Shown: one piece after another, positions 1,768 to 57,554 of the stretch
How the letters are laid out: each line of letters begins with the position of its first letter
Position numbering within the stretch: position 1 is the first letter of the stretch
Source of the DNA: Alphaproteobacteria bacterium
Lineage (GTDB): Bacteria; Pseudomonadota; Alphaproteobacteria; SHVZ01
Direction of reading: 5' to 3'
NCBI GenBank assembly: GCA_044223515.1
Contig: JBGALV010000001.1
Span: 74,864-138,863 of the forward strand
DNA length: 64,000 bases
Translations under genes and position numbers: made by a program
Notes under the pieces: generated by a model
Seen by the model: only the letters and a program-made list of their open reading frames with translations
What the model was told of the DNA's origin: nothing
Databases searched by the model: none

Positions 1768-2823
1768 ATGGCCCGTACACGGCTTTCGCGCAGCGATCTC
1801 ACGGGCAAGGTCCAGACCGTCCGCGGCCTGATCGACCCAAGCGAGCTCGGCCAGACCCTGATGCATGAGCACGTGCTCTGGGACCTCCGCACCCCCGAGA
1901 TCAGGGCCAAGAACGACCTCGGCCCGGAGCTCACCTTCAAGAACATCTTCGGCATGAACTACGGCGAGACCTATTCGCCGAGGAACATGCTGTTCGACGA
2001 CGTCGCGATCGCCATCGACGAGCTGCAGATGATGCGCGACGTCGGCGGACAGACCGTGGTCGAGCTGACCTGCGGCGGCATCCGCCCGGATCCCAAGGGT
2101 CTGGCGCAGGTGTCGGAAGGCACCAGCGTCAACATCGTCATGGGCTGCGGCTACTACGTCGAGGAATACCAGGACCCGAAGAACCGCGAGCGCAGTCCCG
2201 ACGACTTCGCCGCCGAGATGGCGGGACAGGTGCTGGAAGGCGCCTGGGGCACCAACGTGCGATCCGGGATCATCGGCGAGATCGGAACCACCACGCCGTG
2301 GGGCGAGCTCGAGCGGACGGTGCTCAAGGGCGCGATCCTGGCCCAGCAGGAGACCGGCGCCTGCCTCAACATCCATCCCGGACGTAACGACGACCTGCCG
2401 CAGGAGATCGCCGAGTTCGTCGCCGCGAACGGCGGCGACACCTCGCGCACGGTCATCAGCCATATCGACCGGACGATCTTCGACGAGGACCGGCTGCTCC
2501 GCCTCGCCGACATCGGGGTCACCGTCGAGTTCGACCTGTTCGGGCTGGAGCAGGCCTTCTACAAGCTGAACACCAACATCGACCTGCCGAACGACGCGGT
2601 CCGCCTCGAGCTTCTCAGGACCCTGATCGACGCCGGCCATCTCGAGCGCATCGTGATCAGCCACGACATCTGCTTCCGCACCCGCCTGGTCAATTTCGGC
2701 GGCCACGGCTATGGGCACATCTTTCGCAACGTCGTGCCGATGATGAAGCGGCGCGAGTACAGCGACGCCGAGATCCAGACGATCCTGGTCGAGAACCCGA
2801 AGCGGCTTCTCACCTTCGCCTGA
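1768..2823 (+). CDS. phosphotriesterase-related protein (PTE-family amidohydrolase)
   Basis: An HEH-containing N-terminus (MHEHVLWD) is typical of the binuclear metal site of the PTE/amidohydrolase family. Length 351 aa. Confidence 0.8.
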   Translation: MARTRLSRSDLTGKVQTVRGLIDPSELGQTLMHEHVLWDLRTPEIRAKNDLGPELTFKNIFGMNYGETYSPRNMLFDDVAIAIDELQMMRDVGGQTVVELTCGGIRPDPKGLAQVSEGTSVNIVMGCGYYVEEYQDPKNRERSPDDFAAEMAGQVLEGAWGTNVRSGIIGEIGTTTPWGELERTVLKGAILAQQETGACLNIHPGRNDDLPQEIAEFVAANGGDTSRTVISHIDRTIFDEDRLLRLADIGVTVEFDLFGLEQAFYKLNTNIDLPNDAVRLELLRTLIDAGHLERIVISHDICFRTRLVNFGGHGYGHIFRNVVPMMKRREYSDAEIQTILVENPKRLLTFA

Positions 2824-3160
2824 GGGCGAGTCGCGTCCGGAAAAGGGCGATCAGAGGGAATTCCCTCAAAAGCGACTAAAAGTAGTGTTCGAAAAATTCG
2901 CGCTTTCCGGCCTTTTCGGCTGGAACCCGATGCGACCTTAAGTATTTGGATACCGCGACACCGCTCTTATTGCTGGTTACCGCATGTTCCTCTTAGAATT
3001 AACCTTGTTTGTGGCTGTAACTCACCTGTTTGGCGACGTTCGCTGGCTGGGCGACCTGAAGCGCGCGTCGTGCTCCGATCTTTCCTGGAAATTTCCATGA
3101 GCCTTGCGGCCGCGCGGCGTGCCGCTCTGGCTTGTAACTTCAGCGTGTGCAGGAGGCCGG

Positions 3161-4042
3161 ATGGCTGAGCGATCGAAGAACCTGGATGACGTGATCCGGT
3201 CGAACCGGAACGGCATCCTCGAAGACTGGCTGCGCCAGCAGACGGCTCAGACCAAGGTCTCGGACGTTGTCAGTGCGGCGGATCTTCGCGACGAATCCAG
3301 CCGCTTCCTCGAGGCCTTCACCGCTGGTCTCGCCGCCAATCAGAGCGAACTCGCCGGCGGTGCGTGGAGCGAGGCGCGCGCCCTGATCGGCTATCTGTCG
3401 CGCTCTCGCGCCAAGGTCGGGCTCACGCCGTCGGAAACCGCGACCTTCGTCTTCTCGCTTAAGCAGGCTCTGTTCGACCGCCTGGTCGCCGTATCCAAGG
3501 ACCCGGGCAGGCTCGCCGCCGATCTCTGGGTCGTCAGCCTGCTCCTCGACAAGCTCGGCCTCTACTCGGTCGAAGTGTTCATGGAGAGCCGGGAGGAGAT
3601 GATCCGGCGCCAGCAGCAGGATCTGCTGGAGCTTTCTACGCCGGTGGTCAAGCTCTGGGACCGCGTGCTGGCGCTGCCGGTCATCGGCACGCTCGACAGC
3701 GCCCGTACCCAGTCGGTGATGGAGGCGCTGCTGCAGGCGATCGTCGACGAGGGCGCGGAGATCGCGATCATCGACATCACCGGCGTGCCGACGGTCGACA
3801 CGCTGGTCGCTCAGCATCTTCTGAAGACCGTATCGGCCGCCCGCCTGATGGGCGCGGATTGCATCATCAGCGGCATCCGCCCGCAGATCGCCCAGACCAT
3901 CGTGCATCTCGGCGTTTCGCTCGACGTGGCGACCAAGGCGACGATGCGCGATGCCTTCGCGCTGGCGCTTCGCCGGATCGGCATGTCGGTGACGACGAGA
4001 AAGGCGCAACCGAGGAACGAAGCCGCTGACGCCAATGGATAG
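3161..4042 (+). CDS. rsbR: RsbR-like stressosome sensor (N-terminal RsbR non-heme-globin-type domain plus C-terminal STAS)
   Basis: The ATG at 3161 is preceded by AGGAGG. The C-terminal segment IIDITGVPTVDTLVAQHLL matches the RsbR STAS region, including the conserved phosphorylatable Thr residues. The N-terminal helical domain resembles RsbRD_N. Confidence 0.8.
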   Translation: MAERSKNLDDVIRSNRNGILEDWLRQQTAQTKVSDVVSAADLRDESSRFLEAFTAGLAANQSELAGGAWSEARALIGYLSRSRAKVGLTPSETATFVFSLKQALFDRLVAVSKDPGRLAADLWVVSLLLDKLGLYSVEVFMESREEMIRRQQQDLLELSTPVVKLWDRVLALPVIGTLDSARTQSVMEALLQAIVDEGAEIAIIDITGVPTVDTLVAQHLLKTVSAARLMGADCIISGIRPQIAQTIVHLGVSLDVATKATMRDAFALALRRIGMSVTTRKAQPRNEAADANG

Positions 4043-4430
4043 GATCCCTATCCTCAAGTTCGGCCGTTCGCTGCTGGTCACCATCCAGGTCGACATGCAC
4101 GACCAGCTGGCGATGACGCTGCAGGACGATCTGACCTCGCGCCTGGTGAAGGAAAGGGCGCGCGGCGTCCTGATCGACATCTCGGCGCTCGAGATCGTCG
4201 ACTCGTTCATGGGGCGCGTGCTGAACAACATCGCCGCCATGGCGAAGATCCTGGACGCGGTCACCGTCGTCGTCGGCATGCGTCCGGCGGTCGCGATCAC
4301 GCTGGTCGAGCTTGGGCTCGACCTCCCGGGCGTCAAGACCGCGCTCAACGTCGAGCGCGGCATGGACCTGATCCGGGCCAGCATCGAGGAAGAATACTCG
4401 GCCGCCGATGTCGACATCGACTCCGACTGA
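4035..4430 (+). CDS. rsbS: RsbS-like STAS-domain stressosome scaffold / anti-sigma-factor antagonist
   Basis: A 131-aa single STAS domain with the conserved ...LEIVDSFMGRVL... Ser motif. It overlaps rsbR by 8 bp. Confidence 0.8.
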   Translation: MDRIPILKFGRSLLVTIQVDMHDQLAMTLQDDLTSRLVKERARGVLIDISALEIVDSFMGRVLNNIAAMAKILDAVTVVVGMRPAVAITLVELGLDLPGVKTALNVERGMDLIRASIEEEYSAADVDIDSD

Positions 4431-4815
4431 GCGCGTCGAGATCCGGACGCCCGAGGACATCGTCCGCGTCCGGCAGCTCGTGCGCACCCGGGCACAGGCC
4501 GCGGGCCTGACGATCGTCGACCAGACCAAGGTCATCACGGCGGCCAGCGAGATCGCGCGCAATACGCTCGACTACGGTGGCGGTGGCGACGTCGAGATCG
4601 AGATGGTGGCCGAGCCGAAGAAGAATGGTGTCCGGCTGACGTTCCGCGATCAGGGGCCGGGAATCCCGGATATCGAGCAGGCGTTGCGCGACAACTTCAC
4701 CACCGGCGGTGGCCTGGGACTGGGGCTCGGCGGCGCCAAGCGGCTGGTCAACGAGTTCAGGATCGAGAGCAAGGTAGGGGCCGGCACGACGATCATGCTG
4801 GCGCGATGGAAATAG
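4408..4815 (+). CDS. rsbT: RsbT-like GHKL serine kinase (anti-sigma regulatory factor)
   Basis: A 135-aa protein with the N-box (ASEIARNTLDYGGGG), G1 (RDQGPGIPD) and G2 (GGGLGLGLGGAKRL) motifs of HATPase_c. It overlaps rsbS. Confidence 0.8.
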   Translation: MSTSTPTERVEIRTPEDIVRVRQLVRTRAQAAGLTIVDQTKVITAASEIARNTLDYGGGGDVEIEMVAEPKKNGVRLTFRDQGPGIPDIEQALRDNFTTGGGLGLGLGGAKRLVNEFRIESKVGAGTTIMLARWK

Positions 4816-5795
4816 TGATCCGCATCGAGCACGACTCCGATGTCGGCGTCGCCAGGCGCTCGGCCCGCGAGGCGGCGGAGTCCGCAGGCCTCGACGAAGA
4901 GGATGCCGGACGCGCCGCCCTGGTGGCGACCGAGGCCGCGACCAACCTGGCGCGGCATGCCAGCTCCGGTGCGTTCTTCGTTCGTCGTCTCGATCCGGCC
5001 GAAGGGCACGGCGTCGAGATGGTGGCGGTCGATCGTGGCCCCGGCATCGCGAACCTCGCGAACTCGATGGTCGACGGCGTCTCGACACGCGGTACGCCGG
5101 GCCAGGGCCTCGGGGCGATGAAGCGCATCGCCGATCTTCTGACCATCGACTCGCGCCCAGGCGAGGGAACCATCGTGGTCGCCCAGGTCCGCAACGGCAG
5201 CGCGGCCGCACCGTTGCCGATGGCGGTCGGCGGGATCGCCGCCGCCATTGCGCCCGACGGATGCGGAGACGCTTTTGCCTTCTCGCCGAGAGTGCGCGGC
5301 GTCGCGGTCATCATGATCGACGGCCTCGGCCATGGCGCCGATGCCGCGGTCGCGGCCGAAGCGGCGGTCGAATGCTTCCATCGGCGCAGCACGGACGACC
5401 TTGTGAATCTCTTTCAGGCGCTCGACCGCGAGCTCAGGCCGACGCGCGGTGCTGCGATCGCCATCGCCCATGTCGACCTGCAGGACAGGGCCGTGCACTT
5501 CATGGGCGTCGGCAACATCTCCGGGATCCTGATCTCGGGCGGCAAGGCGCGGAACATGGTGTCGCACAACGGCATCGTCGGCCACACGATGCGCCGCGTG
5601 CAGCAGTTCGACTATCCGTTCGCCGAAGACCCGACGGTGATCCTGCATTCCGACGGGGTAGGGACCCGCTGGCAGCCGATGGCTCTGATCGAGCGCGGGC
5701 TGACCAACCCCACCGCGATCGCGGCGCAGCTCTGGCGAAGCGACGCGCGCGGCCGCGACGATGCCGGCGTCGTCGTCGTCCGGGGGCGGACATGA
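4806..5795 (+). CDS. fusion protein: N-terminal RsbT/RsbW-like GHKL domain plus C-terminal PP2C (SpoIIE/RsbX-like) phosphatase
   Basis: The N-terminus has E..N..H, DRGPGI and GQGLG motifs, so it is GHKL-like. The C-terminus has IDGLGHGADAA, the PP2C metal-binding motif. It overlaps rsbT by 10 bp and the downstream kinase by ATGA. Confidence 0.75.
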   Translation: MEIVIRIEHDSDVGVARRSAREAAESAGLDEEDAGRAALVATEAATNLARHASSGAFFVRRLDPAEGHGVEMVAVDRGPGIANLANSMVDGVSTRGTPGQGLGAMKRIADLLTIDSRPGEGTIVVAQVRNGSAAAPLPMAVGGIAAAIAPDGCGDAFAFSPRVRGVAVIMIDGLGHGADAAVAAEAAVECFHRRSTDDLVNLFQALDRELRPTRGAAIAIAHVDLQDRAVHFMGVGNISGILISGGKARNMVSHNGIVGHTMRRVQQFDYPFAEDPTVILHSDGVGTRWQPMALIERGLTNPTAIAAQLWRSDARGRDDAGVVVVRGRT

Positions 5796-7874
5796 GCGAG
5801 CTGGTGCTGGCCACTCGCGTCGCCGAAGAGGGCGATGTCGTGCGCGCACGCCAGCAGGCGCGCCGGGTCGCGAGCCTGCTCGGCTTCGAGGGCCAGGATC
5901 AGGTGCGGATCGCGACCGCGGTCTCCGAGACGGCCCGCAGCGCGCTCGAATACGCCCATGGCGGCAGCATCGAGTTCGCGGTGGAGCGGCGAACCAAGCC
6001 GCAGCTTCTGATCGTTTCCGTGACCGATGCCGGGAAGAACGTGCATCCCGACAAGGCCGAGGAGCGGGATCATGGTTTCCTCGGCGCCCGGCGGTTGATG
6101 GACAAGGTCGATGTCGACATGACCGAGGCGGGGACGGTCGTTCGCCTGACCAAGCGCTTCCCCCGGACGGCACCGGCGGTCACCTCCAAGGTGATAGCCA
6201 AGATCTCTGCCGCCGTCGAAGGCGAGGCGAGCAACCCGCTGGAGGAGCTGGCCCGCCAGAACCGCGAGCTGATGCAGTCGCTCTCCGACAACAAGCGTCA
6301 GACCGACGCGGTCCAGCAGCTGAACCAGGAGCTGCAGGAGACCAATCGCGGCGTCGTCGCCCTCTACGCCGAGTTGGACGAGAAGGCGGCGAGCCTGAGG
6401 CGCGCGGACGAGCTCAAGTCGCGCTTCCTTTCCGATATGAGCCATGAGTTCCGGACGCCGCTGAACGCGATCCTGGCGCTTTCCAGCCTGTTGTTGGACG
6501 AGACCGACGGAAGTTTCGACCGAGCAGCGTCGCCAGGTGGTCTATGTCCGCCGGGCCGCCGAGTCGCTGAGCGGACTGGTCAACGACCTTCTCGACCTTG
6601 CCAAGGTCGAGTCGGGGAAGATCGAGATCCACCGCGCGCAGTTCGACGTGGCCGACCTGACCAGTGCGCTTCGCGGCATGTTCCGGCCGCTGGTGATCGG
6701 TGACGTCTCGCTGGTGATCGAGGACCCGGACGGGCTCGCGATCGTCTCGGACGAAGGCAAGCTCTCGCAGATCCTGAGGAACTTTCTCTCGAACGCAGTC
6801 AAGTTCACCGAGCAGGGCGAGATCCGCCTGTGCGTCACGGAGCCCAAGCCCGGCGTCGTCCGGTTCGACGTACGTGATACCGGCATCGGCATCGCGCCTC
6901 AGGATATCGAACGGATCTTCGATGATTTTGTCCAGGTCGACGGGCCGCGCCAGCGCCGTGTCCGCGGCACGGGCCTGGGGCTGCCGCTGTCGAAGAAGCT
7001 TGCCGGGCTCATCGGCGGGCACATCGAGGTGACGAGCGAGCCGGGCAAGGGCTCGACTTTTTCCATGATCCTGCCGGACGGCCTGACCGAGACCCCGGAC
7101 ATCGTGATGGAGCATGCAGCCGAGCTGACGAAGCAGTCGCCGGTTCTGGTGGTCGAGGACGAGCAGGCGGACCTGCTGGTCGCGGTGACCCTGCTGGACG
7201 CGGCGTCGATCCGAAGCCGGCAGGCGCGCACCTTGGCCGAGGCGCGGGCATCGATCGCCGCCGAGCGGCCCGCGGCGATCGTCCTCGACATCCGCTTCGA
7301 CAAGGGCGATGCCTGGACCTTCCTCGAGGAGATCAAGTCGTCGCCGGAGACTGCGGAGATCCCCGTCCTGGTGATGACTGCGACCGACGATGAGGAGCAT
7401 GCGGTCAAGCTGGGTGCTGAAGCATTTGTGAAAAAGCCCGTGGATCGACGCAACCTTGTGCGCTCGCTGCTTCGGCTCTTGAACAGGAAGCCTGCGCTCA
7501 ACGTCCTGCACGTTGACGACGACGAAACCGCCCGCTACGCGGTTCAGCAGATGCTGTTCGGCACCGGCCGGCATCTTCGCCAGGCTGAGAGCGTGGAGCA
7601 GGCGATGGCGTCGATCAGCCGCGATCAGCCGGACGTGGTCCTTCTCGATCTGCACTTTCCGGATAGCGACGGCTATGCGATGCTTTCCCGGCTGCAAAGC
7701 GACCCGGTACTGCGGATTCCAGTCATCATGCTGACGTCGGCCGTCCTCGATGATGCTGACAGACACCGCCTGGCCGGAGCCTTCGCCATTCTTTCCAAGC
7801 GCGATCTCGCCCGCGACACCTTGATCGACTCGATCGACGCCGCCTCGGCCTTCGGACACGGAGGCGCAGCATGA
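5792..7874 (+). CDS. hybrid sensor histidine kinase with an apparent +1 frameshift near 6509 (degenerate GHKL/RsbW-like N-domain, coiled coil, HisKA, HATPase_c, REC, REC)
   Basis: It starts MSELVLATR at 5792, in the frame of ORF 5261..6703. The H-box FLSDMSHEFRTPLNAI lies in frame A. The rest of HisKA plus HATPase_c and two receiver domains lie in ORF 6537..7874, in frame B. The shift occurs between 6506 and 6512. Confidence 0.7.
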
Positions 7875-8905
7875 CCGCGCATCCGGCGATCCTGGTGGTC
7901 GATGACGACGAGGCATCGCGCTACATCAAAACCCGTGTGCTCGAAAGCCAGGGCTTCGACGTCTCCCAGGCGGGAACGGGTGAAAAGGCGCTCGACCGCA
8001 TCGAGGAGAAGACGCCCGACCTGGTCCTGCTGGACGTGAAGCTTCCGGGGATGGATGGGATCGAGGCCTGCCGCATCATCAAGGAGCGGTGGCCGTCCGT
8101 CTTCGTGCTTCATACCTCCGCGGCCTACCGCAAGCCGTCGGACCGCACGCGCGGCCTCGACAGCGGCGCCGACGGCTATCTCGCCGAGCCGGTCGAGCCG
8201 GGCGAGCTCGTCGCCAACGTCAAGTCGCTGCTCCGCATCCGCCAGGTCGAGAACGAGCTGCGGGCGGTGGTTGAGCGCAACCAGGTGCTTCTCCGCGAGG
8301 TCCAGCACCGCACGATGAACAACCTGCAGCTGGTGATCAGCTTCCTCAACCTCGAGTCCCGCGGGCTTTCCGACCAGCATGCGAAGGACCGCATCAAGGC
8401 GGTGATCCAGCGCGTCAGCGCGCTGGCGGCGGTCCACCACCACCTCTACAGCCGGGGCGCGATCGACCGCATCGACTTCGGCTCGTACGTCGCCGACCTG
8501 GTCAAGGACATCGGCAACGCGACGGGAGAGGAGCGCATCGTCTTCCGCACGCAGGCGGATCCGGTATGGATGGAGGCGGATCGCGCCATCCGCCTCGGCC
8601 TCGTGGTCAACGAGCTCGTGACCAACTCGATCAAATACGCCTTTCCCGGCGGGGAAAGCGGCCAGATCAGCCTGAGCCTGCATGCGACGGGCAACGAGGC
8701 GGTACTGACGGTCGAGGACGACGGGCGCGGCTTCGAAGGCAGCAGCTCCACCGGATCCACACGCTCGGGCCTCAGCCTGAGCCAGGCGCTGGCCGAGCAG
8801 TCGGATGCCGAGCTGATCCGGGACGAGACGACGCGCGGCACACGCTGGCGGATCGTTCTCCACAGCCCCGAGGCGCGCCGCGCCGTAGCGCGCGAGGGCC
8901 GCTAG
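7871..8905 (+). CDS. response-regulator receiver fused to a HisKA_2-type histidine kinase (REC-HisKA_2-HATPase)
   Basis: An N-terminal REC domain (ILVVDDDE...DLVLLDVKLPGMDG), then HRTMNNLQLVISFLNL (HisKA_2 H-box), then an ATPase domain with NELVTNSIKYA. There is an ATGA overlap with the upstream kinase. Confidence 0.8.
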   Translation: MTAHPAILVVDDDEASRYIKTRVLESQGFDVSQAGTGEKALDRIEEKTPDLVLLDVKLPGMDGIEACRIIKERWPSVFVLHTSAAYRKPSDRTRGLDSGADGYLAEPVEPGELVANVKSLLRIRQVENELRAVVERNQVLLREVQHRTMNNLQLVISFLNLESRGLSDQHAKDRIKAVIQRVSALAAVHHHLYSRGAIDRIDFGSYVADLVKDIGNATGEERIVFRTQADPVWMEADRAIRLGLVVNELVTNSIKYAFPGGESGQISLSLHATGNEAVLTVEDDGRGFEGSSSTGSTRSGLSLSQALAEQSDAELIRDETTRGTRWRIVLHSPEARRAVAREGR

Positions 8906-8961: not shown

Positions 8962-10714
8962 CTACGCCTTCTGGACCTTCGCCGCTTCCTCGGCGACGAG
9001 TTCCTTCTTCGACAGTTTCCCGATCAGCGTTTTCGGCAGGGCGGCGCGGAATTCGATCTCGCGCGGCATCTCGATCGGATTGAGCTTGTCCTTGAGGAAC
9101 TGGGTCAGCTCCTCCGAGGTGAGCGTCTTGCCGGCCTGCAGCTTGACGAAGGCCTTCGGGCTCTGGCCGCGATAGCTGTCGTCGACGCCGATCACCGTGC
9201 ATTCCTCGACCGCGGGATGCTGGTAGACCGCTTCCTCGACGACGCGCGGGTAGACGTTGAAGCCGCTGCAGATGATCAGGTCCTTCATCCGGTCGACGAT
9301 GAAGAAGTAGCCGTCGTCGTCCATCATCGCGATGTCGCCGGTCCTGAGCAGGCCGTCGACCATCTGCTGCTGGGTCGCCTCGGGCCGTCCCCAGTATCCG
9401 GCCATCACCTGCGGCCCGCCGATGCAGATCTCGCCACGCTCGCCCTTCGGCACCACCTTGGTCGCATCCGCGATGTCGCGCAGCTCGACCCGGGTCAGCG
9501 GCAGCGGCAGGCCGATCGATCCCGCCTTGTTGACGCCGCCCAGCGGATTGCAGTGGGTCACGGGCGAGCTCTCGGTCAGGCCATAGCCCTCGACCAGATG
9601 GCAGCCGGTCACCTGCTCGAAGCGCTGCTTGACCTCGAGCGGCAGCGGGGCGCCGCCGGAGATGCAGTTCCGGATCGAGGAGAGGTTGCGCGGCTGCTTG
9701 GCGACCGCGCCGTTGAAGGCCGTGTACATGGTGGGCACGCCCGCCATGAAGGTCGGCTTTTTGGTCTCGATCACCTTCAGCGCCGCCTCGACCTCGAAGC
9801 GCGGCAGCATCACGATCTCGGCCCCGACCGACAGCATCTGGTTCTGGATCACCGTCATCGCGAAAACGTGGAAGAACGGCAGCACGCCGAGGACGCGCTC
9901 CTTGCCGAACTCGAAGGTGTGGAACCAGCGCCGGCACTGGATCGCGTTGGCGTAGAGATTGGCGTGGGTCAGCATCGCCCCCTTGGGGATGCCGGTCGTG
10001 CCGCCGGTGTACTGCAGCACCGCCGTGGTCTTGACCGGGTCGATCGCGACCGCTCGGTAACGGCCGTCGTTGGCCGTGAGCTCGGCATAGCGCGGATGCG
10101 CCTGGTCGCGCGGCGGCGTCGCAAGGTCCTTGCGGCGGACGATCGGGAACAGCAGCTTCTTGATGAACGGCAGCGCATCCGCCATCGAGCAGAGGACGAT
10201 CGTCTTCAGCGGCGTCGTCCCCAGCATCGGCTGGAGCTTGGCATAGAGGGCCTGCAGGTCGAGCGTGACCATCACCTCGGTGCCGGAGTCCCGGATCTGC
10301 TGCTCGATCTCCTTGGCGACGTAGAGCGGGTTGAAATTGACGACGATGCCGCCCGCCTTGAGGATCCCGAAATAGGCGATGATGAAGTAGGGGCAGTTCG
10401 GCAGGAACAGGCCCACACGGTCGCCGGGCTTCAAGCCCCGGTCCTGCAGCCCCTTGGCGAAGCGGTCGACCTGGGCTGAGAGCTCGCCATAGGTCGTCTT
10501 CCTGTCGAGGAAGTCGATCGCGCTCTGGCCGGGGATCCGCGAGGAAGTCGATCGCGTTCTGGGCGGGGATCCGCCTGACCGGCTCGTCGAGCAGCTCGTA
10601 GAGCGGCTTCGGATCGATCGGGTCGTGCCAGTCGACCGAGGCCGGATAGAGGGCCGAGTAGTCGCGGCCGCCGCTTGCGATCGACAATGCCCCAGTTGTC
10701 CCGGCGCCAGTCAT
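8962..10714 (-). pseudogene. fadD: long-chain-fatty-acid--CoA ligase (FadD family) disrupted by a 34-bp tandem duplication frameshift
   Basis: ORF 8962..10434 encodes the AMP-binding core (TGGTTGIPKGAML, etc.). The N-terminus (MTGAGTT...YELLDEPVRRIPAQNAIDFL) is in another frame upstream. Removing one copy of the duplicated 34-mer at 10507-10574 restores a continuous FadD of about 572 aa. The ATG at 10714 is preceded by GGGAGG. Confidence 0.75.
10507..10574. repeat. imperfect 34-bp tandem direct repeat (2 copies, 2 mismatches) inside fadD
   Basis: Copy 1 (10507-10540) is gaggaagtcgatcgcgctctggccggggatccgc. Copy 2 (10541-10574) is gaggaagtcgatcgcgttctgggcggggatccgc. Confidence 0.9.
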
Positions 10715-13562: not shown

Positions 13563-13596
13563 GATGATGCCGTCGCGCTTCATCGGCCCTCGCGCT

Positions 13597-29780: not shown

Positions 29781-30665
29781 TTAGCGGAAGGCGATCTCGA
29801 CCCGGCGGTTCCGCGGCTCGCGGGCGCCGTCCGGCGTGGCGACGAGGTTGTCGTTCTCGCCGCGACCCGACATCTGGATCGTTGAGGCCGCGACGCCTTC
29901 GCGGACAAGCGCGGCCCGGACGGAGGCGGCGCGACGCTCGGACAGACGCTGGTTGTAGTCGGTCGCGCCGGAGCGGTCGGCATGGCCGGTCACCACCACG
30001 CGGACGTTGCCGCGCTTCGCATCGCCGGCGGCCTGCCGGATGATGTTCGCGGCTTCCGGCGTGATGTCCGACCGGTCGAAGTCGAAGAAGACGAGATAGG
30101 TCTTCGGCACCGACGGGGCCGGGGCGGGGGCCGGCGCGGGAGCGGGAGGCGGGGCTGCCGCCGCGATCACCCAGGAGGCAGGGTTGAGGCCGCAGGCCGC
30201 GACGTCCTCGACGTGATCCTCCGACATCTCTTCCAGCCAGCATTCGAAGGCGACCTGCTGGGTGGCGGCAGCGGCGGGATCGCGCGCCTTGGTCGCGTCG
30301 ATCCAGGCCGCGAGGCGCGTGCGGTAGTCGAGCGCGGTCGCGAGCGTCTGCTTGTTGTCGAAGCCGACGACCCAGCGTCCCCACATCGGCGGATGGCCGC
30401 GGCGGGCGTCCCATTCCTTCGGGTCGCCGACGGGCACCGCCTGGCCGCGTGCGGCCATGCCCGCCTTCTCGTACATCATGTTCGCGCCGATCGGGTCGTA
30501 CTCGGCCGACTCGATGTCGCCGCGGGCCTTGTAGCCGTCGGCGAGCGCCAGGAGGAAGCGGTCGGTGGTGGTGCGGGGACCGGCGGCGAGGTTCGGATCG
30601 GCGATGGTGCAGGCCGAGACCAGCGCCGCGGCGATGGCTGGGAGGATCAGGGCGCGGAAGTTCAT
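29781..30665 (-). CDS. OmpA-family lipoprotein (N-terminal domain of unknown function, Pro/Ala linker, OmpA_C peptidoglycan-binding domain)
   Basis: A lipobox-like signal (LVSAC), an (AP)n linker and C-terminal OmpA_C motifs (TGHADRSG..YNQRLSERRA..V). Confidence 0.8.
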   Translation of the reverse strand: MNFRALILPAIAAALVSACTIADPNLAAGPRTTTDRFLLALADGYKARGDIESAEYDPIGANMMYEKAGMAARGQAVPVGDPKEWDARRGHPPMWGRWVVGFDNKQTLATALDYRTRLAAWIDATKARDPAAAATQQVAFECWLEEMSEDHVEDVAACGLNPASWVIAAAAPPPAPAPAPAPAPSVPKTYLVFFDFDRSDITPEAANIIRQAAGDAKRGNVRVVVTGHADRSGATDYNQRLSERRAASVRAALVREGVAASTIQMSGRGENDNLVATPDGAREPRNRRVEIAFR

Positions 30666-30771: not shown

Positions 30772-31689
30772 TCATTCGCGCCCCTGATGTTCCCAAAAAC
30801 CTGAAGCCCCAAAAGAAACGGGCCGCCGGAGAACCGGCCCGTCCGGCGTGGCGACGAGGTTGTCGTTCTCGCCGCGACCCGAGGTCTGGATCGTGCTGGC
30901 CGCGATGCCTTCGCGGACCAGGGCGGCCCGGACGGAGGCGGCGCGGCGCTCGGACAGACGCTGGTTGTAGTCGGTCGGGCCGGAGCGGTCGGCATGGCCG
31001 GTCGCCACGATCAGACGGACGTTGCCGCGCTTCGCGTCGTCGGCAGCCTGCCGGATGATGGCAGCGGCCTCAGGCGTGATGTCCGACCGGTCGAAGTCGA
31101 AGAACACCAGGTAGGTGCGCGGAGCCGGTGCCGGCGCGGCAACCGGGGGCGGCGTGACCACCGTGGTCTGCTGGGTGACCCAGAGCGACGGGTTGAGGCC
31201 GCAGAGCTCGACCTCCTCGTAGTCGTCCTCGGCCATCTGCTCGAGCCAGCACTCGAAGGCGACCTGCTGGCCGGCGGTGGTGATCGGATCCCGCGCGCGA
31301 TTGGCGGCGATCCACGCGCTCAGGCGAGCGCGATAGTCGAGGGCGGTGTCGAGGGTGCGCTTCGACTGGAAGCCGACGACCCAGTGGCCGAACATCGGCG
31401 GATGGCCGCGGCGGCGGTCCCATTCCATCGGATCGCCGACCGGGACCGGCTGGCCGGTGCCGGCCATGACCGACTTCTCATAGAAGATGCCGGCCGGGAC
31501 GTAGTCCCAGTGCCAGGTGCTGTCCTCGAACTGGCCCAGCTTGCGATAGCCGTCGGCGAGCGCCTGCTGGAACGGGTCCGAGTTGGGACGGAGGTTGTGG
31601 GAGTCGGTGCGGGCGGGCTCGGCGATCCACGTGCATCCCGCGGTCAGCAGGACGGCCGCGAGAGCCGGGATAAGGCGATGGAGTTTCAT
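30772..31689 (-). CDS. OmpA-family lipoprotein paralog with replaced C-terminus (possible pseudogene)
   Basis: It starts MKLHRLIPALAAVLLTAGC at 31689. The OmpA_C region is about 90% identical at DNA level to the neighbouring copy. The last roughly 13 codons, the stop and the hairpin are deleted, so the ORF reads on through the remnant hairpin into former intergenic sequence (...PVLRRPVSFGASGFWEHQGRE). Confidence 0.65.
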   Translation of the reverse strand: MKLHRLIPALAAVLLTAGCTWIAEPARTDSHNLRPNSDPFQQALADGYRKLGQFEDSTWHWDYVPAGIFYEKSVMAGTGQPVPVGDPMEWDRRRGHPPMFGHWVVGFQSKRTLDTALDYRARLSAWIAANRARDPITTAGQQVAFECWLEQMAEDDYEEVELCGLNPSLWVTQQTTVVTPPPVAAPAPAPRTYLVFFDFDRSDITPEAAAIIRQAADDAKRGNVRLIVATGHADRSGPTDYNQRLSERRAASVRAALVREGIAASTIQTSGRGENDNLVATPDGPVLRRPVSFGASGFWEHQGRE

Positions 31690-31951
31690 GCAACTGTCCC
31701 CATACGTAAGGTTAAGGCGGCAACACGGCCGTCGTGATGCGGGCCGAGCGGACCCGCGCGCATCGCTGTCAGTGCCCGTAAATACCCAGGTACCGCCGGA
31801 TGGTTCCCCGCTCCGGACGCATTTTTTGAGAAAGAGGGACGTGCACATGATTTGGCGGGCGGTATCGAGGCGGCTGTGACCCGGATGCAACGGCCTTGAC
31901 CGCCGGGAGCGCTGTCGCCATGGTCGCCGCCTCCCGACGGAACGACCTGCC

Positions 31952-33118
31952 TTGAGCGCCCGCAAGACCATCCTCGTCCACCACTTCGTCGGCCAGATGC
32001 CGCTCGCCGGCATCGCCTGGCAGGCGACCCAGTACCTGTCGGCGCTGCGCCGGCTCGGCCACGACGTCTGGTACATCGAGGACAACGGGGTGAACCCGTA
32101 CTCGCCGAAGGAGAACCAGCTCGTCTGGGACTCGACCTACAACATCGGCTACGTGCGCTCGATGATGGAGCGCCTCGGGCTCGGCGACCGCTGGGCCTAC
32201 TGGGACCCGGTCAAGGACGGAGCCTGGGAGGGGATCGGCCGCGACCGCCTGATGCAGCTCTACGGCGAAGCCGACGCCCTGATCAATCTGTGCGGCTCGA
32301 CCAAGCTCCGCGAAGAGCACATGAAGTGCCCGGTCCGGATCCTGATCGACACCGATCCCGGCTACGAGCAGATCAAGATCGCGCAGGACGACGCGTACTC
32401 GACCGAGTTCGTCGACGCGCACACGCATCTCTTCACCTACGGCCAGAACATCGGCGACGCCGATTGCCTGATCCCCGCCGGCACGCGGCCGTGGAAGCCG
32501 ACGCGCCCGCCGGTCGACCTCGAGCTCTGGCCCTACGACGACCGCCCGGCGCCGTCCGCCTATACCTCGGTCGCGACCTGGCAGAACAAGGGCAAGAACG
32601 TCCGCTGGCAGGGTCAGTCCTACCAGTGGTCGAAGCACACCAACTTCCTCAAGTTCCTCGACCTGCCGAAGCGGAGCGGGCGGGAATTCGAGCTGGCGCT
32701 GATCACGCCCGATCCGTCGGTCAACAAGCAGGTCGAGGAAGCCGGCTGGCGCGTGCTCGACGGTGCCGTGCAGTCCGAGACGATGGACTCCTACGGCGAC
32801 TTCGTCCGCCGCTCGCGCGGCGAGTTCACGGTGGCGAAGGACATCTACGTCCGCACCAACTCCGGCTGGTTCTCCGACCGCAGCGTCTGCTACCTCGCCT
32901 CGGGCCGGCCGGTGATCATGCAGTCGGCCGGGTTCGAGAAGACGATCCCGGTCGGCAAGGGCCTCTTCTCCTACACCGACCACGATCAGGCGATCGCCGC
33001 GCTCGATGCGATCGACAAGGACTACGAAGGCAACCGCAAGGCCGCCCGCAAGATCGCCGAGGACCACTTCGAAGGCACGTCCGTGGTCAAGGACATCCTC
33101 GACAAGGTCGGCCTCTAA
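31952..33118 (+). CDS. hypothetical protein (388 aa; possibly glycosyltransferase-like C-terminus)
   Basis: An intact ORF with good codon bias. I cannot recognise a confident domain from the sequence alone. Confidence 0.55.
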   Translation: MSARKTILVHHFVGQMPLAGIAWQATQYLSALRRLGHDVWYIEDNGVNPYSPKENQLVWDSTYNIGYVRSMMERLGLGDRWAYWDPVKDGAWEGIGRDRLMQLYGEADALINLCGSTKLREEHMKCPVRILIDTDPGYEQIKIAQDDAYSTEFVDAHTHLFTYGQNIGDADCLIPAGTRPWKPTRPPVDLELWPYDDRPAPSAYTSVATWQNKGKNVRWQGQSYQWSKHTNFLKFLDLPKRSGREFELALITPDPSVNKQVEEAGWRVLDGAVQSETMDSYGDFVRRSRGEFTVAKDIYVRTNSGWFSDRSVCYLASGRPVIMQSAGFEKTIPVGKGLFSYTDHDQAIAALDAIDKDYEGNRKAARKIAEDHFEGTSVVKDILDKVGL

Positions 33119-36362: not shown

Positions 36363-36989
36363 ATGACCTTCGCCGACGCCATGACAGCCTTGCCGCTGGT
36401 CGCGATCCTCCGTGGCGTGAAGCCGGAGGAGGCCGTCGGGATCGGCGAGGCGCTGGTCACCGAGGGCTTCCGGCTGATCGAGGTGCCGCTGAACTCGCCG
36501 CAGCCCTTCGCCTCCATCCAGCGCCTGGCGACGGCGCTCGGCCGCAAGGCGGTTGTCGGCGCAGGCACGGTGCTGAAGCCCGGCGACGTCGATGCCGTGG
36601 CCGATGCCGGCGGCAGCCTGATCGTCATGCCGCACACCGACGTCGAGGTGATCAGGCGGGCGAAGGAGCTGAAGCTGACCGCGGTGCCGGGCTTCGCCAC
36701 GCCGAGCGAGGCCTTCGCCGCGCTGAACGCAGGCGCCGATGCGCTGAAGCTGTTCCCGGCCGAGGCCAATCCGCCGCATGTGCTGAAGGCGATGAAGGCG
36801 GTGCTGCCGAAGTCGGTCGCGGTGCTGCCGGTCGGCGGCATCGCGCCGGAGAGCATGAAGGCCTATGTCGAGGCCGGCGCCGGCGGCTTCGGCTTAGGCT
36901 CCGCGCTCTACAAGCCGGGCGCGAGCGCGGCCGAGGTCGCCGCCAAGGCGAAGGCCTTCGTCGCCGCCTGGAAGACGATCAGGGGATGA
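36363..36989 (+). CDS. dgoA: 2-dehydro-3-deoxy-6-phosphogalactonate / KDPG-type aldolase
   Basis: A 208-aa protein. Its LPLVAILRG N-terminus and the Lys-containing VLPVGGI region are typical of KDPG/KDPGal aldolases. Confidence 0.75.
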   Translation: MTFADAMTALPLVAILRGVKPEEAVGIGEALVTEGFRLIEVPLNSPQPFASIQRLATALGRKAVVGAGTVLKPGDVDAVADAGGSLIVMPHTDVEVIRRAKELKLTAVPGFATPSEAFAALNAGADALKLFPAEANPPHVLKAMKAVLPKSVAVLPVGGIAPESMKAYVEAGAGGFGLGSALYKPGASAAEVAAKAKAFVAAWKTIRG

Positions 36990-39876
36990 CCGGCGCGACC
37001 ACGCGGTTCCGCGGGAAGCGCACGGTGACTTTCGTGCCGCAGTCGATGCGGCTTGCGATCTCGATCGTGCCGCCATGCATCTCGGCGAGCCGCTTGCAGA
37101 TCGAGAGGCCGAGGCCGGTGCCTTCCTTGACGCGGCTGACCAGCGCGTTGGAGCGGTAGCGGAACGGCTCGAAGATGTGGGCCAGCTCCGACTCCGGGAT
37201 GCCGGTTCCGGTGTCGGCGACGACCAAGGCCAGCCTGCCGTCGTCTTCCTCGACCGTCTCGAAGGCGACGGTGCCGCCGGACGGCGTGAACTTGACCGCG
37301 TTGGTCAGAAGGTTGAGCAGGATCTGGCGGAGGCCGCGAGCATCGGCCTTGAGCGCCGGCAGGTCATCCGGAATCGCCTCGCGCCAGCGGACGCCGGCCT
37401 CTCGCGCGCGCTCGTCGAGAAGGCGGATGCAGTCGCGCGCCAGGCTCGGCACGTCGAGCACCTCCTCGACCAGCTCGGCCCGTCCGGCCTCGATCTTCGA
37501 GAGGTCGAGCACGTCGTTGATGAGCTGCAGCAGGTGGTTCCCCGACCACCTGATGTCGGAGGCATAGGCCACGTAGCGGCTGCTGCCGAGCGGCCCCAGA
37601 AGCTGCTGCTCCATCACCTCGGCAAAGCCCAGGATCGCGTTCAGCGGCGTCCTGAGCTCGTGGCTCATGTTGGCGAGGAAGGCCGACTTCGCGCGGTTCG
37701 AGGACTCGGCGCGGTCGCGCGCGTCCTGGAGCTGGATCATCGTCCGCCGCTCCTTGGTCACGTCGCGGACGACGATCACATGGCCGATGCCGGCGACCGG
37801 CAGGCCCATCAGCTCGATATGCGTGCCGTCGGCGCGCTGGCGCTCGACATGGACCGGCTCCCGGGTCGCGATCGCGCGCCGCCACCCCTCGATCACGTCG
37901 GCGACGCTGCCGGGATCGATCTCGCCCGAGCGCGCCTGCTCGGCGATGGCGTCGGCAAGCGTGCCGCCGGTGAAGTCGACCGGCAGCCCGCCGAGCTGCG
38001 CGTAGGGCCGGTTCCACGCGAGGAAGCGCCCGGAGAAGTCGACGACCGCGACGCCTTCGCCGAGGCTGTCGAGGGTGGCGCGCAGCAGGCTCGACTGCGC
38101 GGCGAGCTCGGCCCCGCGCTGCTTCAGCTGCGTGATGTCGGTCATCAGGGTGACGTAGCCGCCGTCCTCGGTCCGGTGGTTGCTGGCGCGGATCCAGGAG
38201 TTCTCGATCTTGAGCTCGATCGGGTTGCCGGGCGACTCGTGCGCGACGATGCGTCCTTCGATCCAGGCTTCCTTGTCGGTCATGCCGGAGGCGCGGTGTG
38301 CGCCCGAGTCGGCGAGGCCGCGCACCAGCTCCTCGAACGGGATGCCGCGGCGGAGCAGGCGCTGGATGCGCGCGCGCCCGTCGGGGATCGCCGCATCGGC
38401 CGAGGCCGACCAGAGATCGGCATATCGGCTGTTCCAGGCGACCAGCCGGTCGTTGGCGTCGAACATCGCGAAGCCGGCGTTGATCGCCTCGATCGCGTCT
38501 TTGAGGCGGGCTTCGGCCTGGCGCTGCTCGGTCACGTCGATCGCGACCGAGAGGATCGAGATCGTGCCGCCCTCGTCGAGCTTCAGCGGCAGCCGGGTGG
38601 TGAGATAGGCGTGGTCGGCGCCGTCATGGTCGGCGAGGTGGATCTCGTGGAACGGCACCGCCTTGCCGCCGTCGAGCACGCGGCGGTCGATCGCCTCGTC
38701 GCGCTGGCCGAACTCCTCGCCGAACACCTGGGTCGCGCGCCGCCCGAGGATCTGGCCCCCCTGCTCATACGAGGCGGCATCGCGCGAGAGAAACTGCACG
38801 CGCGCCTTCAGCGCCTCGTTGACCAGGAGGTAGCGGAGCTCCTTGTCCTTGACGCTGATCGCCGCCGGCACCGTGTCGATGATCGCCTGGAGGAGGTGGC
38901 GCTGCTGGTCGAGCTTCGACTGCGCCTTGGCGGCGATGTCCCAGGCCTCGATCTCGGCGGTGATGTCGCGCCCGGTGCCGCGATAGCCCAGGAACGCGCC
39001 GTCCTCGTCGAAGAAGGGACGGCCGCTGACCGAGATGTGCCGGCGCTTGCCGGCGGAGTCGACGCGGGCGAAGGTGAAGTTGCGGAACGGCCGGCGCTGC
39101 TGGAGGTCGGCCTCGTGTGCGGCGAGCACGCCTTCCGAGACCAGCGGCTGCGTCTCGCGCCGCGTCTTGCCGACCTCGTCGGGCCCGCCATGGGCCGCGG
39201 CATGGGCCGAGACGTAGCTGAAGCGGAGATCGGTGCCTTTCTCCCAGAACCAGTCCGAGGTCGACTCCGCGAAGTCGCGGAAGCGCCCTTCGCTCGCGTG
39301 GCGATGCTTCACCTCGCGGATCAGCATCTCGTTGAGGCCGATGATGCCGGCGACGACCAGGAGCGCGAACACGGCGCTGCCGGCGAAGACCGGAAGCCAT
39401 CCGCGCGTCACCTCGCTGCGCGAGACGGCGACGGCGGCGACCAGCGGCCAGCCGGCGACCGGCCGGTAGTGGACGACATGGGAGGTTCCGTCGCTGCGCT
39501 CGGCCGCGAGCAGGCTCGTCGGCATCTGCACGGACTTGCCGGCGATCGCACGCGCGATCCAGGCGGCGTCGGTCTGCGGCGGCTGGATCGAGACGATCTC
39601 GCCGTCTTCGTTCAGCAGGGCTGCGGCACCCGTGGCGCCGGCGAGCTCGGCGAGGAGGGGATCGATGCGGGCGAGGTCGAGGCTGCCGCCCGCGTCGAGC
39701 ACGCGCTGGACGCGCTCCTCGATCACGCAGGCGCCGACGGCCGCATGCTCGGCCGCGGTAGCGAGGCGCTGCTGGTAGCCCGCCGCCATCCCCCAGGCAT
39801 AAAGCCCGAGCACGCAGGCGATGATGGTGAGGCCGGCGACCCGAAGCCACCGGCGTCGGCTGCGTCTGAACTCCAT
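36979..39876 (-). CDS. multi-PAS sensor histidine kinase (TM-periplasmic sensor-TM, several PAS domains, HisKA, HATPase_c)
   Basis: It starts MEFRRSRRRW at 39876. It has the H-box MSHELRTPLNAILGF and C-terminal G-boxes (GTGLGLSICKRL). It is not hybrid. Confidence 0.85.
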   Translation of the reverse strand: MEFRRSRRRWLRVAGLTIIACVLGLYAWGMAAGYQQRLATAAEHAAVGACVIEERVQRVLDAGGSLDLARIDPLLAELAGATGAAALLNEDGEIVSIQPPQTDAAWIARAIAGKSVQMPTSLLAAERSDGTSHVVHYRPVAGWPLVAAVAVSRSEVTRGWLPVFAGSAVFALLVVAGIIGLNEMLIREVKHRHASEGRFRDFAESTSDWFWEKGTDLRFSYVSAHAAAHGGPDEVGKTRRETQPLVSEGVLAAHEADLQQRRPFRNFTFARVDSAGKRRHISVSGRPFFDEDGAFLGYRGTGRDITAEIEAWDIAAKAQSKLDQQRHLLQAIIDTVPAAISVKDKELRYLLVNEALKARVQFLSRDAASYEQGGQILGRRATQVFGEEFGQRDEAIDRRVLDGGKAVPFHEIHLADHDGADHAYLTTRLPLKLDEGGTISILSVAIDVTEQRQAEARLKDAIEAINAGFAMFDANDRLVAWNSRYADLWSASADAAIPDGRARIQRLLRRGIPFEELVRGLADSGAHRASGMTDKEAWIEGRIVAHESPGNPIELKIENSWIRASNHRTEDGGYVTLMTDITQLKQRGAELAAQSSLLRATLDSLGEGVAVVDFSGRFLAWNRPYAQLGGLPVDFTGGTLADAIAEQARSGEIDPGSVADVIEGWRRAIATREPVHVERQRADGTHIELMGLPVAGIGHVIVVRDVTKERRTMIQLQDARDRAESSNRAKSAFLANMSHELRTPLNAILGFAEVMEQQLLGPLGSSRYVAYASDIRWSGNHLLQLINDVLDLSKIEAGRAELVEEVLDVPSLARDCIRLLDERAREAGVRWREAIPDDLPALKADARGLRQILLNLLTNAVKFTPSGGTVAFETVEEDDGRLALVVADTGTGIPESELAHIFEPFRYRSNALVSRVKEGTGLGLSICKRLAEMHGGTIEIASRIDCGTKVTVRFPRNRVVAPVIP

Positions 39877-39996
39877 CCCCTCGCTTACGACCGCGGATTG
39901 TTGATCGTTCTCGCCTGCGGTCGCGTTCTCCCCGATAAACGGAGCGTATAGCAATTCCGGCGGCATCAACAAGCAGGGCAAAAGGCGAAAAGATCA

Positions 39997-57054: not shown

Positions 57055-57462
57055 TCAATTTGCCTTCTTGGCGGCCTTGAGTGCGATACGGATCCGTTCG
57101 ACCACCATCTGGGTCGAGGCCGGCTTGACGATGTATCCGGCAATCCCGAGACCCTTGAGCTTGTGCACGCTCTCGGGATCGTTGGAGGCGGTCAGCATCA
57201 CGACCGGAATCTGCGCGCTTCCGGTCGGCAGCTCCCTGAGCTTGGCCAGGAACTCGAAGCCGTCCATGTTCGGCATCTTGAGGTCGCAGAGGATGACGTC
57301 GACGAACTCGCGATCGGCGGAAATCAGGTCGATCGCCTCCTTGCCGTCGCGGGCTTGCAGGATCTCCTTGAAGCCGATGCCGTTCAGCATCCGCGCCATC
57401 ATCGAGCGGATGAAAAGCTGATCCTCGATCAGCAGGATCCTGATGCTGGCGAACTCGCTCAT
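57055..57462 (-). CDS. single-domain response regulator (CheY-like receiver)
   Basis: It starts MSEFASIRILLIEDQ at 57462. It has the phospho-acceptor Asp in VILCDLKMPNMDG and the conserved Lys in YIVKP. Confidence 0.8.
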   Translation of the reverse strand: MSEFASIRILLIEDQLFIRSMMARMLNGIGFKEILQARDGKEAIDLISADREFVDVILCDLKMPNMDGFEFLAKLRELPTGSAQIPVVMLTASNDPESVHKLKGLGIAGYIVKPASTQMVVERIRIALKAAKKAN

Positions 57463-57554
57463 CGGTCCGTGCCATAGCACATGACCGCGGCGCAGCGAGG
57501 CCGGAATGCGGGGCTGCGGAAGAAGAACGATCCCGTTGGTTAATGACCGAACGG

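Follow-up and report, generated by a model that had tools for sequence, protein, structure and literature searches.

We analyzed a 64,000-nucleotide stretch of the genome assembly of Alphaproteobacteria bacterium (GCA_044223515.1, contig JBGALV010000001.1, positions 74,864–138,863, forward strand), referred to below as the window, which carries a stressosome gene set followed by genes for a phosphatase and two histidine kinases. Six genes form a chain on the plus strand between 3161 and 8905: rsbR, rsbS, rsbT, a gene for a GHKL-PP2C fusion protein (X), a hybrid kinase gene (HK1) and a terminal kinase gene (HK2). Successive open reading frames (ORFs) overlap in chain-like fashion throughout 3104–8905, by 8, 23, 10, 4 (ATGA) and 4 (ATGA) bp, just as an earlier prediction made from the sequence alone (the original prediction) had described. 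Its count of seven genes, however, included an extra ORF that arises from an interruption of HK1. Close relatives repeat the protein lengths of 293, 131, 135 and 329 amino acids (aa) for RsbR, RsbS, RsbT and X, respectively, which supports the chosen start codons. The features of the locus are as follows:

2824–3160, plus strand: leader/promoter region, with a GGAAC-N16-TATT element (2923–2947) and a hairpin (about 3033–3072), both tentative.
3161–4042, plus strand: rsbR, 293 aa from the ATG at 3161 (the ORF opens at a TTG at 3104); RsbRD_N and STAS domains.
4035–4430, plus strand: rsbS, 131 aa; a lone STAS domain; 8-bp overlap with rsbR.
4408–4815, plus strand: rsbT, 135 aa; GHKL serine kinase; 23-bp overlap with rsbS.
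4806–5795, plus strand: X, 329 aa; GHKL kinase domain and PP2C; 10-bp overlap with rsbT.
5792–7874, plus strand: hybrid kinase HK1, 694 aa if repaired, interrupted as sequenced; ATGA overlap at each end.
6509–6516, plus strand: frame break, a 2-nucleotide (nt) deletion inside the HisKA (DHp) domain of HK1.
7871–8905, plus strand: terminal kinase HK2, 344 aa; Response_reg, HisKA_2 and HATPase_c domains.

Domains were called with Pfam on the cassette ORFs (E ≤ 0.01), and acceptor positions were pinned by a PDB set containing acceptor-site mutants. RsbR has RsbRD_N (8e-24) and STAS (9e-15) domains. Its match to Listeria RsbR (7b0u and others; about 2e-33) spans the whole protein; that to Vibrio RsbR (7o0i; 1.5e-34) is confined to the STAS half. 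Ser180 (3698–3700) aligns with Listeria T175 and Thr214 (3800–3802, in VPTVDT) with Listeria T209, such that both residues fit the acceptor positions T171/T205 of B. subtilis and T175/T209 of Listeria. Across cassettes, the Ser is kept in 81 of 85 and the Thr in 83 of 85. RsbS, a STAS protein by Pfam, matches the RsbS proteins of B. subtilis (6jhk; 1.4e-28) and Listeria (2.6e-28). Its Ser57 (4203–4205, in VDSF) occupies the site of the conserved serine of RsbS (S59 in B. subtilis, S56 in Listeria), a residue invariant among cassettes (85/85). Encoded immediately 3' of rsbS, RsbT shows HATPase_c (1.7e-14) and HATPase_c_2 (4.6e-11) domains and a match to SpoIIAB (1.3e-9). The N box (Asn52), G1 (DQGPG) and G2 (GGGLGLGLGG) are intact and closely match the family consensus. 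By these alignments, all catalytic and acceptor residues that define a stressosome core (the STAS Ser/Thr residues and N/G1/G2 of RsbT) are present. The assignments made beforehand for the three proteins, namely an RsbRD_N sensor joined to a STAS domain with a conserved Thr, an RsbS with its conserved Ser in VDSF, and an RsbT with intact GHKL boxes, are thereby borne out. Whether the first two proteins are truly STAS proteins of the RsbR and RsbS types had been named as a point to check; domain searches confirm that they are, and the quoted Ser and Thr residues sit at acceptor sites. In a related metagenome contig (L002, 2672–3553), gene calling divides rsbR into two same-frame genes (183 and 107 aa), implying that an in-frame stop separates the sensor half from the STAS half; in its sister contig, L003, there is one ORF of 314 aa.

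The fourth protein, X, joins an RsbT/RsbW/SpoIIAB-like GHKL kinase domain (residues 1–135) to a minimal PP2C of the RsbX/MtX type (residues 145–329). Pfam detects both halves (HATPase_c_2, 4e-13; SpoIIE, 4.4e-10), confirming the predicted fusion. The best PDB sequence matches of the PP2C are Moorella MtX (3zt9; 4.5e-18) and B. subtilis RsbX (3w40; 7e-7). An AlphaFold2 model of X (pLDDT 89, pTM 0.90) gave Foldseek TM scores of 0.89 to 3zt9, 0.78 to RsbX (3w40) and, for the N-terminal half, 0.81 to SpoIIAB. RsbX-type phosphatases are single-domain proteins, whereas X carries the 135-residue GHKL kinase domain as an N-terminal extra. Among 20 X homologs with 42–72% identity to the window protein, the N/G1/G2 motifs of the kinase domain and the Asp motifs of the PP2C are all invariant, including the metal-binding residues D155, D172, D283 and D318/D319. 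Because both sets of motifs are invariant, X looks like a protein with two activities and not a decayed fusion.

HK1 orders its domains as a degenerate RsbT-like GHKL domain, a coiled-coil-like linker, HisKA, HATPase_c and two REC domains; elsewhere in the cassette family the kinase may have or lack REC domains. Pfam places HATPase_c_2 and HisKA in 5792–6511, and the C-terminal half of HisKA, HATPase_c and two Response_reg domains in 6513–7874. The H-box with His218 (6443–6445), the N, G1 and G2 boxes of the CA domain and the two REC aspartates (7287–7289 and 7647–7649) are present in a broken ORF. Between the N-domain and the H-box, residues from about 140 to 205 are heptad-rich and, judged by eye, coiled-coil-like. 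No cassette protein matched RsbU_N, and the HK1 N-domain in many loci scores best against the window RsbT. In the window, the N-box Asn of this domain is replaced by Ser (Ser or Gly in close relatives), and G1 and G2 are lost. Across cassettes, the N box and G1 are kept in 60 of 83 and lost in 23, among them the Massilia group. Because these ATP motifs have been lost repeatedly, the domain would fit a binding role tolerant of catalytic loss. The earlier description of a hybrid kinase with an N-terminal RsbT/RsbW-like GHKL domain was therefore right as to the domain, but its ATP-binding motifs are lost in this clade and the frame break had been missed.

Pfam confirms the terminal gene product as a REC-HisKA_2 kinase (Response_reg, 3e-26; HisKA_2, 5e-19; HATPase_c, 2.5e-11). 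The kinase core of HK2 matches EL346 (4r3a; 1e-16), and its histidine, His146 (8306–8308), lies in the sequence HRTMNN, an HRxxN motif. The receiver has its phospho-accepting residue at Asp55 (8033–8035), kept in the window and in eight aligned relatives. At the position of the canonical Lys stands Glu106 (8186–8188), with GADGYLAEP of the window aligned to ADDYIMKP of MtrA. Such a Lys, near-universal among receivers, is normally needed for their phosphorylation-driven switching. An N-terminal HK2 receiver with Glu, Ala, Gln or His in its place occurs in 64 of 68 cassettes, with any type of core and across phyla. HK2 is REC-(PAS)-HisKA-HATPase-REC in most cassettes. A HisKA_2 core is found in the window's own clade (L002/3, L011, L091–93) and an HWE core, after a PAS domain, in a metagenome-assembled genome (MAG) of the Hyphomicrobiaceae (L023); HisKA_2/HWE cores occur solely in these two cassette lineages, both alphaproteobacterial. 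Because this cassette-specific, Lys-less receiver is constant whatever core follows, its conservation would mark the receiver as the acceptor of the cassette signal and the kinase core as exchangeable output. In one alphaproteobacterial MAG (L042, 9369–13145), HK1 and HK2 read as a single ORF of 1258 aa in the automated call, which is either a natural fusion that backs functional coupling of the two kinases or the result of a lost stop codon.

The original prediction held that this combination of genes stood out; it proves to be a common, conserved cassette. More than 2,282 X homologs occur in the protein collection, some of them named 'ATP-binding SpoIIE family protein phosphatase' by NCBI, and a GTDB scan with one genome per species gave at least 451 confirmed loci with an X relative. 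Synteny was compared in the 80 best loci, i.e., the top-scoring subset of the at least 451 GTDB representative-genome matches to X. These span more than ten phyla; 69 of the 80 have rsbR-rsbS-rsbT-X-GHKL-kinase in order and 57 have all six genes, and roughly half of the incomplete cassettes are cut by contig ends. Gene order is thus conserved, and the same order is seen in alphaproteobacterial MAGs and Noviherbaspirillum. Hosts include Alphaproteobacteria (Acetobacteraceae, Rhodospirillales, Hyphomicrobiaceae, Methylobacterium iners and Alsobacter), Betaproteobacteria (Massilia, Paraburkholderia, Noviherbaspirillum and Janthinobacterium), Gammaproteobacteria, Gemmatimonadota, Acidobacteriota, Cyanobacteria (Nostoc, Dulcicalothrix and Microcoleus), Planctomycetota, Nitrospiraceae, Myxococcota and one actinobacterium. 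A Methanoregula contig has R-S-T-X and ends after X, the fourth gene. The window locus is an ordinary member of this family with a clade-specific HisKA_2 swap.

As sequenced, HK1 is interrupted. The frame opened by the ATG at 5792 stops at 6703 and the remainder lies in another frame from 6513, yielding ORFs at 5792–6703 and 6537–7874. A tblastn search with an intact 692-aa homolog matched 5804–6511 in frame 2 and then 6513–7871 in frame 3, and Pfam HisKA positions are split between the fragments (2–30 in one, 43–66 in the other). We compared the operon with that of L091 (GCA_041906305.1), a syntenic relative with 86.5% nucleotide identity over the operon segment and 92–93% in the flanks. The comparison reveals a 2-nt deletion at 6512/6513, where L091 has GGAAAGGTT (Asp-Gly-Lys-Val) versus GGAAGTT in the window; L009 reads GGAAAACTT at the same site. 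Of the two indels in the operon, this deletion alone shifts the frame; the other is an in-frame insertion of 3 nt. HK1 is intact in L002/L003 (692 aa), L011 (694 aa) and L091/L092 (694 aa), and L009/L010 read through the site. Neither HK1 fragment should be a working kinase, because His218 lies on one of them and the second DHp helix, with the CA domain, on the other.

Two further lesions lie downstream. A 34-nt imperfect tandem duplication (10506–10574, with two differences between copies) disrupts the frame of an AMP-binding/acyl-CoA synthetase-like gene (8962–10714, minus strand), in which the peptide RIP(A/G)Q(N/S)AIDFL now occurs twice; L002 and L091 have intact versions of this gene (569–572 aa). 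This duplication could be an assembly artifact from strain heterogeneity or real slippage. A 17-nt tandem duplication relative to L091 (13569–13601, at 13587) falls where two ABC-transporter permease genes meet. Three unusual indels, the 2-nt deletion and the two duplications, thus lie within about 7 kb, and both duplications are missing from L091. Because the same assembly bears the 34-nt and 17-nt duplications near the deletion, this cluster of odd lesions hints at assembly or consensus artifacts. L001, an independent Logan contig (SRR28480390) whose X gene is identical, extends to about window position 6407, about 100 nt short of the break. That leaves two possibilities: an inactive pathway in this organism, or an error in the sequence.

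The leader 5' of rsbR, strongly conserved in four close relatives, contains GGAAC-N16-TATT at 2923–2947. Alignment with L008, L009, L011 and L002 shows a variable spacer between conserved GGAAC and AGTATT. The element looks like an ECF-type promoter lacking the CGTT -10 element, and we treat it as a lead only. The canonical EcfG consensus is GGAAC-N16-17-CGTT. A search for GGAAC-N15-18-CGTT gave one match in the window (at 1264, within an aminotransferase-like ORF at 104–1360) versus 1.4 expected, and this candidate was rejected. The region 5' of 83 cassettes gave one forward and two reverse-strand matches to the EcfG motif, likewise rejected as evidence for the general stress response. A GC-rich hairpin (about 3033–3072, GCGACG...CGTCGT) was predicted by RNAalifold and persists in part in L002, a more distant relative. 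In an alignment of five sequences, four of them close relatives, just one of its pairs shows a two-sided substitution, and covariation lends the structure no support; we make no claim for it as an RNA element. Rfam returned no relevant match for the conserved leader.

Every domain expected by the original prediction (RsbRD_N, STAS, HATPase_c, SpoIIE, HisKA, HisKA_2 and Response_reg) was found by Pfam, and its picture of a stressosome module neighbored by PP2C and two-component proteins instead of sigma-B and RsbUVW is supported by domains and residues. Consistent with its statement that sigma-B, RsbU, RsbV and RsbW are absent downstream, no sigma factor, RsbU_N, RsbV/W, PhyR or NepR was found in the 64-kb window by Pfam on the cassette and ten unassigned ORFs and by eye for the rest, about 2 kb of ORF translation being unread. 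We consider it probable that the operon represents one instance of a conserved six-gene cassette in which stressosome output passes through HK1 and HK2 rather than a sigma factor. RsbR and RsbS would build a STAS scaffold that sequesters RsbT. Upon a signal at RsbRD_N, RsbT would phosphorylate Ser57 of RsbS and Ser180 and Thr214 of RsbR and be released. X would reset the scaffold by dephosphorylation, with its RsbT-like domain acting as a STAS-docking or competing module. HK1 would be the output, its RsbT-like N-domain either docking on the scaffold or pairing with free RsbT, and engagement of this domain would set the geometry of the DHp dimer via the coiled-coil linker. Phosphate from HK1 would then pass to the HK2 receiver and, in the manner of BphP1 and ExsG, activate or silence the HK2 core, and HK2 would act on a response regulator encoded outside the cassette. 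The steps of this mechanism we infer; domain content, residues, gene order and overlap are read from the sequence. Stressosome modules adjoining two-component genes have precedent (PMC9237108), and RsbT-binding N-domains that steer kinases through coiled coils have been proposed for RsbU_N-kinases (PMC12143880).

Several points weigh against this reading. The Lys-less receiver of HK2 may not act as a standard phospho-receiver, and the HK1 N-domain of this clade, judged by its motifs, cannot bind ATP, which defeats, for this clade, any model relying on its kinase activity. The cassette contains no HPt domain, leaving a strict phosphorelay without support; the term 'phosphorelay', as used in the original prediction for the coupling, is loose. 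No gene of the cassette supplies the final response regulator, and HK1 is interrupted in this assembly. Direct coupling of RsbT to a kinase is not established even in the closest studied case, because no interaction between RsbT and the downstream kinase was detected in Vibrio (PMC9237108). In the literature we found no experimental test of any step of the mechanism for any cassette member.

The frame break gives rise to another reading, that the operon is decaying: the 2-nt deletion would be real, stressosome output lost and the locus a pseudogene-bearing remnant. We regard this as a possibility of some substance, if a doubtful one. In its favor, the break falls inside DHp and leaves the phospho-accepting His and the CA domain on different fragments; all four checkable relatives are intact, which makes the lesion specific to this genome; and a simple single-base error in a homopolymer would not account for the deletion. 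Both HK1 fragments nevertheless retain coding-type composition, and apart from the deletion and the in-frame insertion the operon is free of indels relative to L091. The neighboring duplications suggest artifacts of assembly or consensus, and L001, ending short of the site, offers no confirmation of the deletion. Were the kinases instead mere bystanders, RsbT would act on an unlinked RsbU-type phosphatase, RsbV/RsbW or sigma factor, as in Bacillus. Partner-switching modules do occur in Alphaproteobacteria (PMC3999984), and inspection covered 64 kb of the genome, so that unlinked partners are possible. However, translational coupling ties the kinases to rsbT and X, they co-occur with both genes in 69 of the 80 best loci and in more than ten phyla, and X and HK1 both bear RsbT-like domains. 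We consider a bystander role very unlikely.

A third reading concerns where the signal goes. The original prediction suggested a route from the stressosome into the alphaproteobacterial general stress response, PhyR-NepR-EcfG, in which HK2 would phosphorylate either PhyR itself or, one step earlier, a single-domain regulator or PhyT-like relay. HWE/HisKA_2 kinases control PhyR in Alphaproteobacteria (PMC5898713, PMC5964349), and HK2 has a HisKA_2 core with an HRxxN motif, PhyK as its best NCBIfam match and EL346 as its best structural relative. In addition, HisKA_2 or HWE cores were swapped in independently in two alphaproteobacterial cassette lineages, and the GGAAC-N16-TATT element 5' of rsbR is conserved in the clade. 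Against these points, HK2 scores 108.6 bits on the NCBIfam PhyK equivalog versus a cutoff of 750, with the core alone aligned, which amounts to family-level similarity. Searches for phyR, nepR and ecfG were negative in the window, in the Pfam-labeled flanks of L002 and L091, and in ten ORFs scanned around the L023 cassette, which proved to be metabolic genes with no general stress response gene among them. The strict EcfG motif is missing 5' of rsbR, at chance level in the window and not enriched 5' of other cassettes. Furthermore, most alphaproteobacterial cassettes end in HisKA-type kinases, HWE/HisKA_2 kinases also serve pathways other than the general stress response, e.g., ExsG (PMC3899027), and no paper linking a stressosome to this pathway was found in the literature searched. 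The proposed route comes down to the HisKA_2 family label, with PhyK score, linkage and promoter all negative, and we judge it unlikely. We are equally skeptical of its evolutionary form, in which a HisKA_2 core replaced the HK2 core while the Lys-less receiver was kept, thereby plugging the stressosome into the HWE/HisKA_2 network that controls PhyR-NepR-EcfG; if true, the alphaproteobacterial general stress response would have its first example of a stressosome input. More probable than such an input is that the cassette uses the RsbT-like domains on its phosphatase and kinase as direct STAS-docking modules, an arrangement that would differ from the RsbU_N route.

Stressosome modules adjoining two-component genes were reportedly recognized by Pane-Farre et al. 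in 2005. The cassette shares much with the Bacillus/Listeria stressosome, including full-length alignment of RsbR with Listeria RsbR, an RsbS closest among solved structures to that of B. subtilis, the acceptor positions, the GHKL motifs of RsbT, an RsbX-type PP2C and the R-S-T gene order. It differs in lacking RsbU, RsbV, RsbW and sigma-B, with histidine kinases as the neighboring outputs, in placing the phosphatase, with its extra N-terminal kinase domain, directly 3' of rsbT, and in having Ser rather than Thr as the first RsbR acceptor. Heinz et al. (2022) described rsbRSTX modules with eleven downstream types (PMC9237108). Minimal modules of this kind, with two-component or c-di-GMP outputs, such as MtR/S/T/X-MtG of Moorella and RsbRSTX-D1-D2 of Vibrio vulnificus, likewise have an R-S-T-X core with two-component proteins encoded within a few bases (PMC9237108), and Moorella MtX is the closest relative of the X phosphatase (TM 0.89). 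Vibrio RsbR, in contrast, has a heme globin sensor, whereas the RsbRD_N domain found here aligns with the N-domain of Listeria RsbR. Published X proteins are single-domain PP2Cs, unlike the GHKL-bearing X of this cassette, and published stressosome-linked kinases have RsbU_N or PAS N-termini where HK1 has an RsbT-like GHKL domain. Similarly, RsbT output through RsbU, MtG and RsbU_N-kinases is mediated by RsbU_N, while the HK1 N-domain is HATPase_c_2. By its domain architecture, the cassette appears to differ from the described stressosome-to-two-component class in the RsbT-like domains on the phosphatase and HK1 and in the Lys-less HK2 receiver. Full-text literature searches, which did not cover the contents of Pane-Farre 2005, found no description of a cassette with a GHKL-PP2C and a GHKL-kinase.

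Parallels for individual components come from other systems. HK2 has the layout of ExsG of Agrobacterium/Rhizobium, with a receiver, a HisKA_2 core and a CA domain encoded directly after a hybrid kinase (ATGA overlap); ExsG likewise combines an N-terminal receiver with an HWE/HisKA_2-class core in about 340 aa and is encoded beside an upstream histidine kinase. In ExsG, phosphorylation of the receiver Asp by BphP1 leads to inhibition of the HWE core, and phosphate passes to a single-domain regulator (PMC3899027). The likeness is one of architecture; the HK2 receiver lacks the canonical Lys, its upstream kinase is stressosome-linked and not a photoreceptor, and no single-domain regulator is encoded alongside. 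With the PhyK/Pak/LovK kinases, HK2 shares a HisKA_2 DHp with HRxxN, and the closest relatives of its host are alphaproteobacterial MAGs; it falls far short of the PhyK equivalog and shows no linkage to phyR/nepR/ecfG and no canonical EcfG promoter. Among solved structures, that of M. tuberculosis Rv1364c (PAS-RsbU-RsbW-RsbV; 3ke6) alone joins a PP2C and an RsbW-type GHKL domain in one chain, as X does; in Rv1364c, however, the PP2C precedes the kinase and a STAS domain is on the same chain, and the protein regulates a sigma factor.

The operon is separated by a 337-bp gap from a phosphotriesterase-family gene upstream and is bordered downstream by the convergent AMP-binding-enzyme gene. The left border of the operon neighborhood differs among close relatives, because the phosphotriesterase-family gene (1768–2823, plus strand), directly 5' of the operon, is found in L008 yet is missing from the otherwise syntenic L091. 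Elsewhere in the window, far from the operon, are a multi-PAS HisKA histidine kinase of 1000 aa (36979–39981, minus strand) and a stand-alone single-domain receiver of 140 aa (57058–57477, minus strand), for neither of which a link to the operon was found in the window scan. Two adjacent paralogs (29781–30665 and 30772–32085, both minus strand) are apparent lipoproteins with OmpA-like C-termini, judging their translations by eye.

Stressosome signaling outside the Firmicutes is an open question, and even in Vibrio a link between RsbT and a kinase is undemonstrated. The window copy is of modest value in itself, coming from an uncultured alphaproteobacterium with a HisKA_2-swapped core and a frame break that possibly reflects assembly quality alone. 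The cassette to which it belongs is far more widespread than the Vibrio type and carries three hallmarks: an RsbT-like domain on the RsbX phosphatase, an RsbT-like domain on HK1 and a Lys-less receiver on HK2. Its presence in the culturable and genetically tractable Massilia, Paraburkholderia, Methylobacterium and Nostoc makes the mechanism of output directly testable.

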